From: a virus
Lineage: Duplodnaviria; Caudoviricetes
IMG/VR virus record: IMGVR_UViG_3300032321_001270
Location: 32,001-96,000 of that record
Direction: 5' to 3' (one strand)
DNA length: 64,000 nucleotides
This document shows, piece after piece, positions 20,674 through 30,560 of this stretch. The position numbers and the translations under genes were made by a program. The notes beneath the pieces were generated by a model. The model worked only from the letters and a program-made list of their open reading frames with translations, was not told where the DNA came from and searched no databases. The stretch's first letter is position 1. Every line of letters starts with the position of its first letter.

Positions 20674-20703
20674 ACGGAGAGTAGGTTTGCCCTATCTCTC
20701 CGT
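20674..20703. terminator. Bidirectional terminator between convergent genes
   Basis: acggagag/ctctccgt stem flanked by A8 and T4. Confidence 0.75.
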
Positions 20704-21084
20704 TTTAATTCCAGTATTTTTCTCGCGAAATATGGGCGCTTCAAGTAACGTGACAACGATAAACTCCTCGTTACTAGATAAACTACAGTCGTAATAAATA
20801 GAAAGCACCGGGGTGTCCAACACAGCGAAAAAAGATTTAGTGAAATAATCTGCTCCAGCATTCACCATGAGACACCGGCGCACAGATTTCAATAAGTCAC
20901 TGTCGATGGCGGGTGTAGCGGCAAACCGTTTTTCGGTCTCTGTTAACATGCCCGAAATACGGACAACGAACATATCAGCTATGATGCACGTTTTTATGTT
21001 ACTTGCGCCTTTTCCCATGTATTGCTGCATGAACTTGTTTACTGCAACACATATGGCAGCTTCGGCTTCTCCTTGCGTATACAT
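20692..21084 (-). CDS. DUF2294 (Na-translocating decarboxylase subunit-like) protein
   Basis: TQGEAEAAIC...QQYMGKG...VVRISGMLTETE pattern of the family. Confidence 0.75.
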   Translation of the reverse strand: MYTQGEAEAAICVAVNKFMQQYMGKGASNIKTCIIADMFVVRISGMLTETEKRFAATPAIDSDLLKSVRRCLMVNAGADYFTKSFFAVLDTPVLSIYYDCSLSSNEEFIVVTLLEAPIFREKNTGIKTER

Positions 21085-21535: not shown

Positions 21536-21622
21536 TCACAGAAAGACAACGATGCTCAGGTCGTCATCATCATCGTCAAAGTCAAACTCGATGCCGTAGA
21601 TATGCTTGGATGCGTTTGTCAT
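21536..21622 (-). CDS. 28-aa acidic small ORF (not in ORF track)
   Basis: MTNASKHIYGIEFDFDDDDDDLSIVVFL; GAGGT SD; TATAAT at 21663-21668. Confidence 0.45.
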   Translation of the reverse strand: MTNASKHIYGIEFDFDDDDDDLSIVVFL

Positions 21623-21763
21623 ATCTGTACCTCGCGACGACAGGTTTCAAAAACGTGTCGCTATTATATCGTTTTGATAACAATTCCCTTTCTGTAAGAA
21701 AACCGTATACGGCTTTCTTACAAAAGAAATGACGTAACATGTTGTCAAATAACAAGTTACGTC

Positions 21764-22441
21764 TAATAGCTAAAAAAATCCTGCACGGTGGGCCCGAAGG
21801 CCGCCCGCGGCGTCGTACTGCTGAGCGCAACCCAGCAGCCGTACGCCTCCGATGTGGCGGACTTGGTAGTCCGAGCCCCGTGTGTGGATTAAACACGTAG
21901 GGGCTTTTTAGTTCGTCCTCGGGTTGCGGCGTTCCTTGGGAACGACTTAGACAACCTGTAACAAACCATATCCACGTAACTCTCCTGACGATAAAGACGT
22001 TTCAGGAGAGCCAATGCGTCGGCGCTCTAAAGCAGTACACCGACGGCAGAGAATTCGCGCACCAAAGAGGCGCGTTCCCGGGCTACGTTGCCATAGCTCC
22101 AGCACACACAATTACGGATTGTTACTGCCGTGGCGCCTCCGTATGGTGTTGTGCAGTACACCGGGCGTCCACGAGCAGGCCGAAGTTTCATCGGCACCCT
22201 ATTGTTTAACGTGATAGGTTGGCACGGTACGTTCTTGCGCTGGCAGCAGCTTTCACGGCTTCTTCAGTTACGATTCCTCGCAACTTTATTACCGTGTGGA
22301 CTGTACATACGCAGCCCGAACCTCCCATGGAAGCAGCATGGACGGGGGAGGCTCCATGCCGCGCTATGACCAACCATCAACCGCCGCTGGCTGTCACACT
22401 CAGCCAGCGGAAGACGCAGAGTCTCACACAAACTCTGCGTC
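21764..22441 (-). ncRNA. Candidate large structured ncRNA
   Basis: About 670 nt without a credible ORF; at least 10 hairpins including UUCG and GGAA tetraloops; ends in a T7 tract. Confidence 0.45.
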
Positions 22442-22669
22442 GATGACGGTGTAGCTGTCGTACTCTTCCTGCAGAAGAGCCGCAGCATCACCGTCAAGAA
22501 TTGCAGCCTCGGCGGGAATGCAAACGCAGACGCCGAGTTCCAGCCCGCAGTGCAGGCAGTGTTCAATGTCCGTGTCGGGCGGCGCAATGGCCACGGCGAA
22601 CACAAACAGCATGTCCCGGCAGTCGTCCACGTTGACCTTCACCGCCGGGTTGTTACGGAGCTGACTCAT
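22424..22669 (-). CDS. Hypothetical protein
   Basis: AAGGAGG SD. Confidence 0.65.
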   Translation of the reverse strand: MSQLRNNPAVKVNVDDCRDMLFVFAVAIAPPDTDIEHCLHCGLELGVCVCIPAEAAILDGDAAALLQEEYDSYTVIDAEFV

Positions 22670-22687: not shown

Positions 22688-22840
22688 AATAAAACAACCG
22701 CCGTCTCGTGGCGGCTCACGCTAATGGTCTCTCGCCATTAGACGGCCCCACCTATCACCGGGCAGGGGGTACGGCGAGGGGTGCTATAACTTCATGCGTA
22801 AAGCCAGTGGATGTACCACTGCCGCGGCAAGAGCTATAGG
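22688..22840 (-). ncRNA. Candidate ~150-nt structured RNA or attenuator leader
   Basis: Lies between the promoter at 22848-22880 and a terminator-like hairpin at 22697-22714 plus T-rich tract. Confidence 0.45.
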
Positions 22841-22847
22841 CCCTCAA

Positions 22848-22880
22848 TAGATATGCCGCGTTTTTGGCAGATATTTAGCT
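22848..22880 (-). promoter_or_regulatory. Conserved bipartite phage promoter
   Basis: AGCTAAATA-N17-ATATCTA. Confidence 0.7.
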
Positions 22881-22884
22881 ACTG

Positions 22885-22954
22885 GCTAATAGCTAAAGAA
22901 AGCGTACGCTTTGCGGAGCCGTCGCCTCCGCTGCCCACAAATTAATAACGCCCG
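22885..22954 (-). terminator. Repeated hairpin/terminator element, copy 2
   Basis: Same 23-bp core and same layout as 15874-15940. Confidence 0.6.
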
Positions 22955-23493
22955 GCCTCTTCTTCGTCGGCCTCGTGCTCGGCTTCCGCCCATTCAGCCT
23001 GCCGCTCTGCCAGCGCTTTATCATCCAGCCCGAACGTTTCAAGTTCCAGCTTTTTCCTGCGCGCTTCGCGCTCAGCCTCCGCCTCTGCCTCTTCATATTG
23101 CATACGATCCTCGCGCATGCGATCTTCAAATTCAAGATCTTCAAGAGAGATGTCGTGCGCCTCGGCTTCAAGCTCTTCTTTCTTTTCACGGTCTATGGCG
23201 ATGTAAAGCTCCGCCTTGACCGCGTCAAGTGAAAACGCGCCCTGCGGGCAAAAGCAATTGCGGCTACCGTACGTAGCGTCACTCAGATGCACGTACTTGT
23301 AGCCGCGCAACTCAAGCAGCTCAACCAGCGCCATTGCCGTATAAGGATCGGCAGCCGTACCAACGTACTGGCGACCCACGCTGTATACACCATCATCGGC
23401 GTTCTTAATGCCGTGAACGCGCATGCTACCGTCGGGGAAGGTAATCATGTGAACCTTTCTAAAAAAAATTACAAGCTTAAATTGAGATAGCAA
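22942..23493 (-). CDS. Hypothetical protein with Glu-rich coiled-coil C-terminus
   Basis: ORF; start possibly MITF, about 23448. Confidence 0.6.
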   Translation of the reverse strand: MLSQFKLVIFFRKVHMITFPDGSMRVHGIKNADDGVYSVGRQYVGTAADPYTAMALVELLELRGYKYVHLSDATYGSRNCFCPQGAFSLDAVKAELYIAIDREKKEELEAEAHDISLEDLEFEDRMREDRMQYEEAEAEAEREARRKKLELETFGLDDKALAERQAEWAEAEHEADEEEAGRY

Positions 23494-23718
23494 AAAGTCT
23501 GCTGGGCCTTAGCCAGCTTTGTGCAATACAAGCATCCCGGGCAGACTTATGCCCGAACAGCTTCACCGCCCCGCGGCAAGGCCGGCAAACCGAAGTTTGC
23601 CGCTAAGGTGTCTGAAGGAGAGCTGATATCCTCGGCGTTCTTTTAGTCGGGCTCATGAGACCCGCCGTTCAAATAGAGGGGCTATTTGCGCGAAACGCCT
23701 CGTACTGTGAATTAAAAA

Positions 23719-27333: not shown

Positions 27334-27767
27334 GACAGAACGTCTCCCTACGTTTCATCGAACCACTGAACAACCCACGACAACGTGCCGAGGGCAAGAA
27401 AAAAAACCGGGCGGGCCCTTTACGGTCCGACCCTATAACCCAAGACTAGCTGCAGCTCTTCTTGGAACCCCTCCACGTCGGCAGCACGCCACGAGATTCC
27501 CCGCAACGATAGCCAAAGGTAAGGAGTACCCGGTTAAACAACGTTGTGACGGACACGCAGGCCGTCACGGGATATAGGACTTCGGGCTCATGCGTGAATA
27601 TTTGCCCCAGTTTCCCGGCTAACCTTTTTGAGGCGCCTTCGTCCACTACGTTGTTGTTCGAGACCCGGCTGTTAATTCAGCAATCTTACCCGTTGAAAGA
27701 TAAGACGCGGACGCAATGCCGCGGTGTTAATTCACTTCACTACCCGATGAAGGATAGTTCCGGGCTA

Positions 27768-28112
27768 TGGAGGCGGCGGGAGTCGAACCCGCGTCCAGAG
27801 ATATCTCCAGAAAGAACGTCTACGTGTGTAGGCAGTTGTTGTTTACACTCTTGCCAAAGTTAGCCGATTATCGGCGTCAGGTGGGCTACCACCATCTTGC
27901 CCTTTCTTACTGGGCCAGATCAGCCGATTATCGGCGTCAACCTGATTGGGCAATAAGGCTCAGGTCGCCTCACTCACTGGCCTATTAACTAGGCAGCGAG
28001 GGCCGGTGCAAAAGCGCCAGCTAGAAACGTAATCGGCTTTTAACGTGGCCAACCGATCAACCACGACACGCAGTCCTAACCTTCCTTATCCTGTCGATAC
28101 CAGTACGCCCCC
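27768..28112 (-). ncRNA. ssrA: tmRNA; predicted tag AGAFAPALAA
   Basis: 5' GGGGGCGTACTGGTATCGAC; pseudoknot 1; tag frame ending LAA-TAG; 3' GGGTTCGACTCCCGCCGCCTCCA. Confidence 0.93.
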
Positions 28113-28336
28113 GTATTGTTGTTGGCCATATTCCCATTGTGAGGCTGCGGCGCTGGTGGGCGCCTGCGTTTACCGCCAGCTCTTTTTAACGTAATTTATC
28201 TGGCGGCACCAACAACAAATTGAAAATCTCGCCGCAGGGATGTGGTGATTACACGTAGTTGCTACGCTCCCACGCACATTGAGGCTCATAACTTCCCCCT
28301 GCATTTCGCATCGCTGTACACACGCTGCCGAGACAA

Positions 28337-28410
28337 TAACCCGGGTGGGAGTCGAACCCACAACAAGTAGATCCTAAGTCTACCGCCTCTGCCAGTTGTG
28401 CTACCGAGTT
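28337..28410 (-). tRNA. tRNA-Leu(TAG) with short variable loop
   Basis: Cloverleaf; gtaga-CTTAGGA-tctac; 5-nt variable region. Confidence 0.8.
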
Positions 28411-28547
28411 AAAAATTGATGAGTGTCGATTAGGGGTCGCTTCCGATATACGAGCCACGTGGATAGGCATACCGGGAAATCGAACTTAAAACCTCACTAC
28501 CTCCTGCCGGGGATCAGCCGGAACAGTTCAATGGTTTTACTCATCAA

Positions 28548-28620
28548 TGACCCCACGGGGATTCGAACCCCGGTAAACGGAACGAAAATCCGTTGTCCTA
28601 GGCCACTAGACGATGGGGCC
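28548..28620 (-). tRNA. tRNA-Glu(TTC)
   Basis: Cloverleaf; acgga-TTTTCGT-tccgt. Confidence 0.9.
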
Positions 28621-28629
28621 ATTGTCGTC

Positions 28630-28815
28630 TCAGTCTACCTTCTCGACGTTTAGCGCGATAAGAAAACCACACATTTGCGCGAACGTGATCAGCTGCTTCT
28701 CTTTGAGTTTGAAGAAATCTGCAAAGTGAGTAAACAGATCACAAGGCGACAGATCTGTCGGGTTTTGCGTTTCGCGCAACTTAGATATCAATTCAGCGGC
28801 TCTTTCCAGCGTCAT
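28630..28815 (-). CDS. Small hypothetical protein
   Basis: AAGGAG SD before MTLERAAE. Confidence 0.55.
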   Translation of the reverse strand: MTLERAAELISKLRETQNPTDLSPCDLFTHFADFFKLKEKQLITFAQMCGFLIALNVEKVD

Positions 28816-28851
28816 CTTCTTGCTCCTTCGTGTAAAGATAACAAAACTCAT

Positions 28852-28922
28852 TGGGCCGCCAAGGAATCGAACCTTGCGTCGCGAGTTAATAAGACTCGCT
28901 TGCCTACCAGTTTCCGCGGCCC
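28852..28922 (-). tRNA. Atypical tRNA-Ile(TAT) or tRNA-like element
   Basis: Perfect acceptor, T and anticodon stems; loop CTTATTA; short unpaired D region. Confidence 0.6.
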
Positions 28923-28985
28923 GCGTGGGCGGGGCGCCAGCAGCTTGGGCTACTGCCAGCGCCCCGCCGTCAGCGAGTCTAACGC

Positions 28986-29330
28986 TTACCGATAGCGCTT
29001 GCACGCATACCAGCGGCCATCCCTGCCTCGCGCGACCCCTTGATCAACAACCCTCATTCCGCTGCGGCTGTAGCAGCAGTTATTCAGAGCCTGCTCGGGC
29101 GTGGAACCGGCGCCAACACCCTCGTAGCCTGAATTACCACCACAGTGCCCCATAGCACCGCGACTTGCCTGCATCTCTGCGACGCCTTGCGCCGTAGAGT
29201 TAGTGTAGGCATAGCTGCGCACAGACGGGATTGGCGTCGAACTGGTATAGCGTCGTACTACAACAGGGCCGTCGGCATGCGCAACGCCGACAACAGAGAG
29301 CGCCAATAGCGAAAGAAAAACGCGAATCAT
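28986..29330 (-). CDS. Secreted minimal CAP/SCP-like protein
   Basis: Signal peptide; MGHCGG..YEGVG..NNCCY..GVARG..GRWYAC. Confidence 0.55.
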   Translation of the reverse strand: MIRVFLSLLALSVVGVAHADGPVVVRRYTSSTPIPSVRSYAYTNSTAQGVAEMQASRGAMGHCGGNSGYEGVGAGSTPEQALNNCCYSRSGMRVVDQGVARGRDGRWYACKRYR

Positions 29331-29392
29331 ACGATCCTCCGTGACAAACCAAACAAACCACAGCCCGGAACATTTCTGCGCCGGGCTGACAG

Positions 29393-29466
29393 TAGGCGCA
29401 AAGGGACTCGAACCCCTAACCCCCTGCGTGTAAAACAGGTGCTCTGACCAATTGAGCTATGCGCCT
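29393..29466 (-). tRNA. tRNA-Val(TAC)
   Basis: Cloverleaf; cctgt-TTTACAC-gcagg. Confidence 0.92.
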
Positions 29467-29472
29467 GCGAGT

Positions 29473-29829
29473 CTAACCCGCGTGTTCTAACTCTCGACGA
29501 CGACGTGCTCGTGCCCAAGGCGACCGATTCCAATACCAGCCCCGCCAACGATTGCAATATCCACGCCACCGCCGGCGCAACTTGTGATACCACTTGTTGC
29601 GGCCGATGGTGGTTAAATAATGCTGCGTCCAGAAGCTCATCGACTCGTCCGATGTTCCGTCGATATAGCTTTCCCCGCAATCGAAGCACCGATTCGCCGG
29701 TACGCGAAACACCGGAACTTGGTGTTGCTGTCCGTCAATCAGCATCGACATGACGTCATTGAATTCAACGGCTTCAATACGCCCACCGCAGTGCATGCAC
29801 TTTAACGACTTGTAAATTGGCTTACCCAT
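29473..29829 (-). CDS. YgiT/MqsA-type zinc-finger protein
   Basis: CMHCGG...VPANRCFDCGESY. Confidence 0.65.
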   Translation of the reverse strand: MGKPIYKSLKCMHCGGRIEAVEFNDVMSMLIDGQQHQVPVFRVPANRCFDCGESYIDGTSDESMSFWTQHYLTTIGRNKWYHKLRRRWRGYCNRWRGWYWNRSPWARARRRRELEHAG

Positions 29830-29841
29830 GTCGCCCTCCAA

Positions 29842-29926
29842 TGGCCAAGGCGGGAATCGAACCCGCACGGGAAGTTATTCCCAGCGGATTTTAAGTCCGC
29901 TGCGTCTGCCGTTTCGCCACTCGGCC
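29842..29926 (-). tRNA. tRNA-Leu(TAA)
   Basis: Cloverleaf with long variable arm; gcgga-CTTAAAA-tccgc. Confidence 0.95.
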
Positions 29927-29935
29927 AACCGCCTG

Positions 29936-30280
29936 CTAAACCAGCGCCGGATCTTCCCGCTCGGCGGGAGCAGGATACTTGTCGGGGTGACCGATGTGCA
30001 TGAACTTATCGCGCCCCGACCGACTATGCGTGCCGCATCCTGATCGCAAAATCATTGCTTCCTTGAAGTACTGATACACGCGATCGATGTCCAGATACTC
30101 ACGATACGTCAACCCAGCCTCCAATTGCCGCGGCCGATCCAGCATTTCTCGCAGCGTATTCAAATGCTCGGCGATCTTGTCGTTGTAGTACTCGGCCGTC
30201 GTTTCCAGATCATCTTTGCCGTTGTTGATCATACACGTACCTCTTGTCCCCAATTTGACACCACCAACGCTGCCCATCAT
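29936..30280 (-). CDS. Hypothetical protein (start possibly MINNG)
   Basis: ORF between tRNA genes. Confidence 0.5.
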   Translation of the reverse strand: MMGSVGGVKLGTRGTCMINNGKDDLETTAEYYNDKIAEHLNTLREMLDRPRQLEAGLTYREYLDIDRVYQYFKEAMILRSGCGTHSRSGRDKFMHIGHPDKYPAPAEREDPALV

Positions 30281-30440
30281 TCCAGTAGATGGGTGTAACA
30301 GACGCTGACGGGGGTTGCAACTCGGTCGGTTTCGGGTGGGCTTTTTGATACTCTTCGTAGCTTTCCCACGCGATTCCGGCCAACATCAGCAACGCCGTGA
30401 TCAACCCGATTAAGTTACCTTTAATCTCGATCCCCTTCAT
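30210..30440 (-). CDS. Small membrane protein
   Basis: AAGGAGG SD; N-terminal TM helix. Confidence 0.65.
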   Translation of the reverse strand: MKGIEIKGNLIGLITALLMLAGIAWESYEEYQKAHPKPTELQPPSASVTPIYWNDGQRWWCQIGDKRYVYDQQRQR

Positions 30441-30486
30441 TTCAAACCTCCTTGTTTAGAAATGAAACCCAAAAAGAATCCCCCAA

Positions 30487-30560
30487 TGCCTCCTCTAGGA
30501 TTCGAACCTAGGACCAACGGATTAAAAGTCCGATGCTCTAACCAGCTGAGCTAAGGAGGC
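30487..30560 (-). tRNA. tRNA-Lys(TTT)
   Basis: Cloverleaf; tcgga-CTTTTAA-tccgt. Confidence 0.95.

Follow-up and report, generated by a model that had tools for sequence, protein, structure and literature searches.

A candidate new family of large structured non-coding RNA in a variable slot of a freshwater phage genus

RNAs that adopt a complex fold and exceed 500 nt are rare; apart from ribosomal RNA, introns, and RNase P, very few classes of them are known. Bacterial small RNAs derived from 3' untranslated regions (3' UTRs) are usually 50-150 nt long and act by base pairing, and a phage moron is as a rule a protein gene equipped with a promoter and a terminator of its own. The closest described systems to the RNA presented here are GOLLD and ROOL. 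GOLLD is a multi-domain, phage-borne RNA of more than 500 nt that was first obtained from lake metagenomes and is composed of variable and better conserved parts, and ROOL, with a length of about 580-660 nt, occurs in phages and prophages and is not essential (PMC12286853). Both GOLLD and ROOL self-assemble as closed, RNA-only, homo-oligomeric cages, the purpose of which is unknown (PMC12286853). A survey of viruses has reported 10,006 candidate structured RNAs with motifs of only 29-151 nt (PMC10690425), and therefore a whole RNA of ~640 nt lies outside the range of that survey.

Here, we describe an RNA with a strand-specific, selected, multi-domain fold that is carried as optional cargo in a variable slot of a phage genome. 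The window, that is, the whole stretch of DNA analyzed, is 64 kb long (64,000 nt) and is taken from an IMG/VR virus record that has 205,188 bases and is rated complete (positions 32001-96000 of the record); all positions below are window positions. The RNA spans ~22412-21772 on the minus strand, from the stop codon of a gene for a small protein, ORF81, to the terminator of that gene. The nearest cultured phages, Salmonella phage Arash and Pseudanabaena phage PA-SR01, are very distant (~33% identity in the SNF2 helicase), and the contigs of the relatives come from freshwater metagenomes. The RNA is a credible candidate for a new family of large structured phage RNA with three variants in one genus, and no published description of it was found in the literature.

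Like GOLLD, this RNA is a large multi-domain phage ncRNA in a freshwater setting; unlike GOLLD, which is typically longer than 800 nt, it is shorter and has no model match, its nearest tRNA is 5.9 kb away, with none inside it, and it forms the 3' UTR of a protein gene. It shares with ROOL a similar size, carriage by phages, and dispensability, but ROOL is widespread, whereas this RNA was found in only three lineages, all within a single genus of uncultured freshwater phages. Its placement between a stop codon and a terminator, with no promoter of its own and as an optional insertion that varies among relatives, recalls 3'-UTR-derived small RNAs and morons, from which it differs by its ~640-nt length and complex conserved fold.

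Coding potential, strand, and anatomy

The region had been proposed from its letters as a large phage ncRNA with no credible ORF, and the absence of an ORF is confirmed by stop codons in all six frames between the ORF81 stop and the A7 run at 21772-21778, which reads as U7 on the minus strand. Gene callers likewise leave the gap empty in other assemblies of the phage and in its relatives. The longest open stretches reach up to 102 codons on the plus strand, and their translations match no Pfam family. Substitutions show no codon periodicity, with counts of 14/20/21 and 7/8/6 by codon position. The stops, the flat codon-position counts, and the lack of a Pfam match lead us to reject a coding region or a recoded gene; a conserved protein-coding signal, named in the sequence-only reading as the observation that would speak against an RNA, is absent, with no periodicity, broken frames, and no Pfam match. 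The description of the surrounding genome as tightly packed holds only roughly, as this part of the genome also contains several other gene-free structured stretches.

The minus strand of the region (window 22441-21772) folds with an MFE of -308.1 kcal/mol and a z-score of -9.56 against shuffles, whereas the plus strand has an MFE of -266.1 and a z-score of -3.90, a strand difference of 42 kcal/mol. The two z-scores therefore indicate a structure that is both beyond chance and strand-specific. When the minus strand is folded in 150-nt windows, z lies between -2 and -6 across nearly all of them from 21600 to 22575. The earlier preference for the minus strand, drawn from G-U pairs and tetraloops, is borne out by this MFE asymmetry and by conserved G-U pairs. 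Of the 92 pairs in the core, at least 11 are G-U in all variants; such invariant pairs would be mismatches on the other strand or as DNA, and thus point to selection on a minus-strand RNA. Among the loops are GGAA, GCAA, and UUCG tetraloops, and UGAAAC occurs twice.

All of the stems listed in the sequence-only reading are found in the DNA, namely two 10-bp stems (22413-22422/22432-22441 and 22384-22393/22401-22410), GTTACGA-TTCC-TCGCAAC at 22267-22284, CTCTCCTGA/TCAGGAGAG near 21980-22010, CTGCTG/CAGCAG at 21818-21838, and GGCC-CGAA-GGCC at 21791-21802. One further stem, given as 22336-22342/22353-22359, is one base off and truly pairs 22337-22343 with 22354-22360.

The RNA is ~640 nt long in the window and ~510 nt in the L003 type, which is without the 134-nt domain. 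It contains at least 14 helices, arranged as two 5' hairpins, the optional 134-nt domain, hairpins HA-HC, a seven-hairpin core, a 3' domain, and a terminator (Table 1). Folding of the whole molecule by MFE gives different long-range pairings for the window and L003 sequences, and the helices reported are those that are shared or supported by covariation. In the 134-nt domain, a CCUCCC loop and a downstream GGGAGG may form a pseudoknot. Domain D is predicted to be closed by a long-range helix that pairs UCCG..GUGUG.GC with GC.CACAUCGGA and is invariant. The terminator of the RNA is homologous to the terminator found directly after ORF81 in relatives with an empty site; its efficiency is uncertain, as a spacer of 5 nt lies between stem and U-run.

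Table 1. Elements of the RNA and of its presumed transcription unit in window coordinates, listed from upstream to downstream.
Feature	Position	Strand	Remarks
Phage-type bipartite promoter-like motif GCTAAATA-N15-GGCATAT	22851..22879	-	Nearest upstream signal
Leader	22690..22840	-	82-92% identical in relatives, above ORF81 itself
ORF81, 81 residues, small acidic protein	22424..22669	-	RNA lies in its 3' untranslated region
Hairpin 1	22413..22441	-	Encloses ORF81 stop codon; window-specific, not conserved in L003
Hairpin 2	22384..22410	-	First element common to the three variants, 5' edge; U-A to C-G compensatory
Conserved 5' junction CGGUUGAUGGUUGGUCAUAGCG	22362..22383	-	Nearly invariant in the three variants
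134-nt peripheral domain, 3-4 hairpins, one with GGAA loop	22228..22361	-	In window and L078; absent from L003
Hairpins HA and HB (HB = GCCGA-UGAAACU-UCGGC)	22179..22227	-	HB: A-U to G-C compensatory
Hairpin HC, long and irregular, tip invariant	22125..22178	-	C-G to U-A compensatory, plus wobble changes
Domain D, multi-branched core, hairpins D1-D7	21848..22124	-	Covariance model R1; D1 loop GCAA
Domain E, GGCGU/ACGCC helix enclosing CUGCUG...CAGCAG hairpin	21809..21847	-	U-A to A-U compensatory, after realignment
Terminator hairpin, UUCG loop and U7 tract	21772..21808	-	C-G to U-A compensatory
TAGCTATTAG motif	21757..21772	-	Common to all relatives; downstream edge of variable slot

Variants, covariation, and known RNA classes

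The loci of relatives were gathered by searching with ORF81 in metagenome contigs, genome contigs, and a set of 5.8 billion proteins. The same RNA is present in two further variants from uncultured freshwater phages, the L003 type, with identical copies in L004, L033-35, and the MAG contig L071, and L078, a Logan contig of 1.1 kb that covers only the 5' two thirds of the RNA. The sequence variants thus number three, from one phage genus, with L078 partial. DNA pattern scans of IMG/VR, genome contigs, and metagenome contigs returned only the L003-type phage (including the MAG-binned copy) and chance 18-19-mers. BLASTN against 50,697 phage records gave no match to the RNA, and covariance model R1 gave no further match in the window, in the phage's own genome, or in 30 related phage records.

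The core of the RNA is 86-92% identical in all three pairwise comparisons, against 68-76% for the adjacent ORF81 DNA. Window 22220-21757 is 89.6% identical to L003, as compared with ~72% for ORF81 DNA and a coding-DNA background of ~73-80% between the same two genomes. The tRNA, tmRNA, and other non-coding blocks are conserved between the window and L003 as highly as this RNA. The variants are distinguished by several 1-nt indels and one indel of 134 nt.

Covariation was assessed in several ways. The window sequence was folded alone (MFE), and the effect of the 51 substitutions of L003 on the predicted pairs was examined. Compensatory pairs number 6, as compared with 0.85 expected with random placement (P ~0.0002), and 12 pairs are broken, as compared with 17.9 expected (P 0.015); the broken pairs cluster in two long-range helices that are predicted by the window MFE alone. 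RNAalifold on the three sequences, covering the 5' two thirds of the RNA, gives 126 pairs, 14 of them with double changes. Between the window and L078, the 134-nt domain contains seven pairs with double changes, including swaps of whole helices, in which GUUGCGA-GGAA-UCGUAAC becomes GCCGUGC-GGAG-CACGGC and ACGG/CCGU becomes GUGU/ACAC. Hairpin HA also carries a compensatory change between the window and L003. On model R1, all 228 of 228 cells of the core domain hold standard pairs, whereas sliding the partners by 1-3 columns lowers this to 33-48%, and the core has four pairs with double changes as compared with 0-1 in the slid controls. Most core pairs are invariant and therefore neutral toward the model; in several helices, the long-range closing helix among them, no pair varies, and these are only predicted from folding. 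The collection of homologues, suggested in the sequence-only reading, has supplied two further variants, and their comparison an excess of compensatory pairs, and the proposal of a large structured ncRNA on the minus strand is supported by the strand asymmetry, the G-U pairs, compensatory changes in two independent variants, conservation, and the lack of a coding signal. A selected RNA structure is very probably real.

The RNA was compared with the 4227 models of Rfam 15, using the whole window at gathering scores and 1701 and 681 bases at E<=10, the 681 bases with the laxest filters. The Infernal cmscan, proposed earlier as a check, yields no Rfam family at E<=10, even for the 681 bases alone, and only chance-level matches to microRNA hairpins (E 0.4-4.7); the L003 copy has no match at E<=0.1. 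The earlier statement that the RNA cannot be assigned to a class therefore stands. At E<=10, no match was obtained to the covariance models of GOLLD (RF01998) and ROOL (RF03087) or to OLE, HEARO, raiA, and the other large bacterial ncRNA models of Rfam. The models of RNase P RNA, tmRNA, and 6S RNA do not match here either, and the same scan recovered the phage tmRNA. Across seven related loci, Rfam finds tRNAs, tmRNAs, and one weak YrlA (Y RNA-like) match (E 0.066) that overlaps a tRNA of L005.

Several other candidates were rejected. A group I or group II intron in ORF81 has no model match and no downstream exon, because ORF81 ends alike in lineages with and without the insert. A sponge of the CsrB/RsmZ type is not indicated by the 14 GGA triplets, as compared with 12.5 +/- 3.0 in shuffles, only three of which are mostly unpaired. 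A repeat RNA, such as ToxI-like antitoxins or CRISPR-repeat mimics, is rejected by the lack of a direct-repeat family in 21760-22450. RNAs such as GOLLD and ROOL are often near tRNAs; here, a tRNA/tmRNA island lies 5-9 kb away (tmRNA at 5.3 kb, tRNAs at 5.9-8.8 kb), not directly beside the RNA, and no tRNA lies inside it.

The slot after ORF81 and its surroundings

The ORF81 family comprises 12 protein clusters in the 5.8-billion-protein set, with an invariant C-x2-C...C-x-C pattern and an acidic C-terminus. It matches no family in Pfam or PHROG, and the protein may bind zinc. The slot that follows this gene is a hot spot for insertions and deletions: it is empty in seven lineages, holds a different element of ~130 nt in six, and holds the large RNA in three. 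In empty lineages, the ORF81 stop leads directly into the terminator GCGCGGCAGUGGUCUUCGGACC..GCGC-U5-8 and then the motif TAGCTATT, which has 6 copies in the window as compared with 0.8 expected. The empty state is probably ancestral because the most divergent ORF81 homologues (46-58% identity) have an empty slot. The closest relative, the P0002 contig, is probably a fourth carrier, with a 1030-nt gap after ORF81. L002, with an 80%-identical ORF81, has an empty slot, and the L078 and L003 types, at 66-71%, have the RNA; the carriers are not each other's closest ORF81 relatives, and the locus has therefore been reshuffled. The RNA occurs once per genome and at the same site every time. Neither BLAST nor the covariance model finds it anywhere in five near-complete genomes of the genus. 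The RNA is dispensable, given that most close relatives, these five genomes included, are without it.

The conserved ~130-nt element of the six other lineages (L005:5236-5395, L031:3255-3410, L046, L048, L063, and L080) has the form ACCUCACUAGAGACACUGCC...GCAGGCYGGGUGCAAUUCCCRGCGAGGU followed by a U-run, and contains a T-loop-like hairpin that covaries in an alignment to be taken as indicative. Downstream of it, most lineages have AAAGGAGGUG and an ORF of 30 codons (MRPPNK...FFSY); a ribosome-binding site often stands between the element and that ORF. No match to Rfam or to tRNAs was found for this element at E<=0.1.

The bipartite promoter-like motif upstream of ORF81 has six copies in the window as compared with 0.03 expected, and transcription of the unit that has the RNA at its 3' end probably starts at the copy at 22879-22851. 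Neither the bipartite phage motif nor a sigma-70-like site was found in the stretch from ORF81 to the RNA. Co-transcription with ORF81 is therefore the simplest reading, and we consider it likely from this arrangement of signals. The leader ends in a terminator-like hairpin (22716-22696) right before the AAGGAGG ribosome-binding site of ORF81, and it may therefore act as an attenuator controlling both ORF81 and the RNA. With this hairpin upstream and no promoter of its own, the RNA may seldom be transcribed.

Another large structured RNA without an assigned class, RNA-2, lies upstream on the same strand (24159-23714, ~446 nt). All relatives examined carry it, with 80-91% identity, which exceeds that of the coding DNA on its flanks. 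In the RNAalifold consensus of 11 sequences, 33 of 154 pairs have compensatory double changes, and the 25-bp closing helix covaries wholesale. A sigma-70-like promoter site (24196-24169) and a terminator (23751-23718) accompany it. RNA-2 has no Rfam match at E<=10 and no BLASTN match in the 50,697 phage records, and it looks better supported than the ~640-nt RNA. The two RNAs are alike in strand, large size, structure, lack of an Rfam family, and conservation above their coding surroundings; they differ in that RNA-2 is universal in the relatives and has its own promoter-like site and terminator. The ~640-nt RNA is not a paralogue of RNA-2, to which it has no sequence similarity. In the window and the L037/L039 type only, an insertion of ~810 nt (22904-23713) separates RNA-2 from the ORF81 leader and holds an ORF (22942-23493) that matches no family in Pfam or PHROG; in other relatives, RNA-2 abuts the leader.

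Downstream of the slot, all relatives carry a conserved acidic ORF of ~27 codons on the minus strand (21538-21622) with its own ribosome-binding site, preceded by a conserved palindromic hairpin (21685-21729) and an inverted repeat GACGTAAC...GTTACGTC (21733-21765). Farther along the same strand, a 130-residue ORF (20692-21084) has a precomputed Pfam match to MpsC (PF10057) and lies within a 683-nt stretch (21157-20474) that is absent from L003, another accessory insertion near the RNA. The minus strand of the window also encodes a phage tmRNA at about 27765-28112 (119.7 bits), for which ARAGORN reads an odd tag peptide of 25 residues, and five tRNAs at 28336-30560 (Leu-UAG, Glu, Val, Leu-UAA, and Lys); on the same strand, 41660-41695 matches the abiF RNA motif (RF03085) of Rfam above its gathering score (44.6 bits against a threshold of 37). 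Just downstream of the tmRNA, the block 27396-27618 is gene-poor and 83% identical to L003.

Proposed role and alternative explanations

Our explanation as a whole is that window ~22412-21772 (minus strand) encodes an accessory structured ncRNA of a new family, which is co-transcribed cargo and acts in trans by its shape; we give it a little better than an even chance. The transcript would start at the phage-type promoter at 22879-22851 and pass through the leader hairpin and ORF81, with the RNA as its 3' part, perhaps then trimmed at the 5' hairpins. The RNA would act in trans by its folded shape rather than by base pairing or coding, possibly as a scaffold or a decoy for a macromolecule of the host or the phage, or for its own copies, as proposed for GOLLD and ROOL. 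Such a trans-acting scaffold or decoy, suggested by analogy, is our best guess and a tentative one, held with rather less than even confidence. The patchy presence of the RNA suggests a host-specific and dispensable job, which might be a task such as takeover or counter-defence. A bolder and improbable extension is that a jumbo-phage genus of freshwater exchanges structured RNA cargo through a swap-in slot, either the ~640-nt RNA or the unrelated element of ~130 nt. The large RNA would then represent a new 'ornate' class with its own activity, for example by assembling with itself, acting as a catalyst, or capturing a defence or translation factor of the host, and the RNA-gene island of these phages would hold several undescribed large RNAs, this one among them.

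An RNA that is without its own promoter, begins at the ORF81 stop with a hairpin around that codon, and shares its terminator with the gene could also be a cis-acting 3' UTR, the fold of which only protects or tunes the ORF81 mRNA, for example through a block to 3' exonucleases or its half-life, and has no role of its own. We consider this unlikely in view of the seven lineages in which the same ORF is followed by a plain terminator only. Moreover, a length of 640 nt, a seven-hairpin core, and tight conservation far exceed the needs of stabilization, and an unrelated alternative element in the slot fits cargo better than a tuning device.

It is quite unlikely that the RNA is what is left of a mobile element or a passenger on one, for example an intron-like or ribozyme-bearing cassette that is spread by recombination and kept by its own transmission rather than by benefit to the phage. 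The single copy per genome at a constant site, the lack of visible terminal repeats or target duplication, and the lack of an associated protein gene or of a match to an intron, ribozyme, or transposon-guide RNA family all argue against it. A patchy presence that does not track ORF81 similarity (L002 empty; L078 and L003 types carriers) would fit such an element, as would sharp borders with a higher identity inside than outside, but the same elevated identity is seen in the other ncRNAs of these phages, and selection therefore explains the identity pattern.

In its size, its phage setting, and its freshwater origin, the RNA is reminiscent of GOLLD and ROOL (PMC12286853), and the tRNA/tmRNA island is 5-9 kb away; a very divergent member of GOLLD, ROOL, OLE, HEARO, the group I/II introns, or RNase P that was missed by covariance models is nevertheless very unlikely, given the negative scans of Rfam 15 at E<=10 for 1701 and 681 bases of the window and at E<=0.1 for the L003 copy. 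That there is no RNA at all, and that the region is a decayed protein gene or a DNA element (an origin, a packaging site, or a hairpin-rich recombination hot spot), is hardly credible despite plus-strand open stretches of up to 102 codons and the frequent insertions and deletions at the site, in the face of absent codon periodicity, frames broken by 1-nt indels, no protein family, selection on one RNA strand as seen in the conserved G-U pairs and the 42 kcal/mol strand gap, and conservation above that of the neighboring genes.

As accessory cargo, a further large phage RNA unrelated to GOLLD and ROOL would provide new material for the open question on the cages that those RNAs form, and the natural occurrence of genomes with and without it, together with a natural variant that lacks one domain, adds to its usefulness. 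It also indicates that the accessory cargo of a phage can be an RNA rather than a protein, placed in the 3' UTR of a gene, where it is missed by gene-based annotation.
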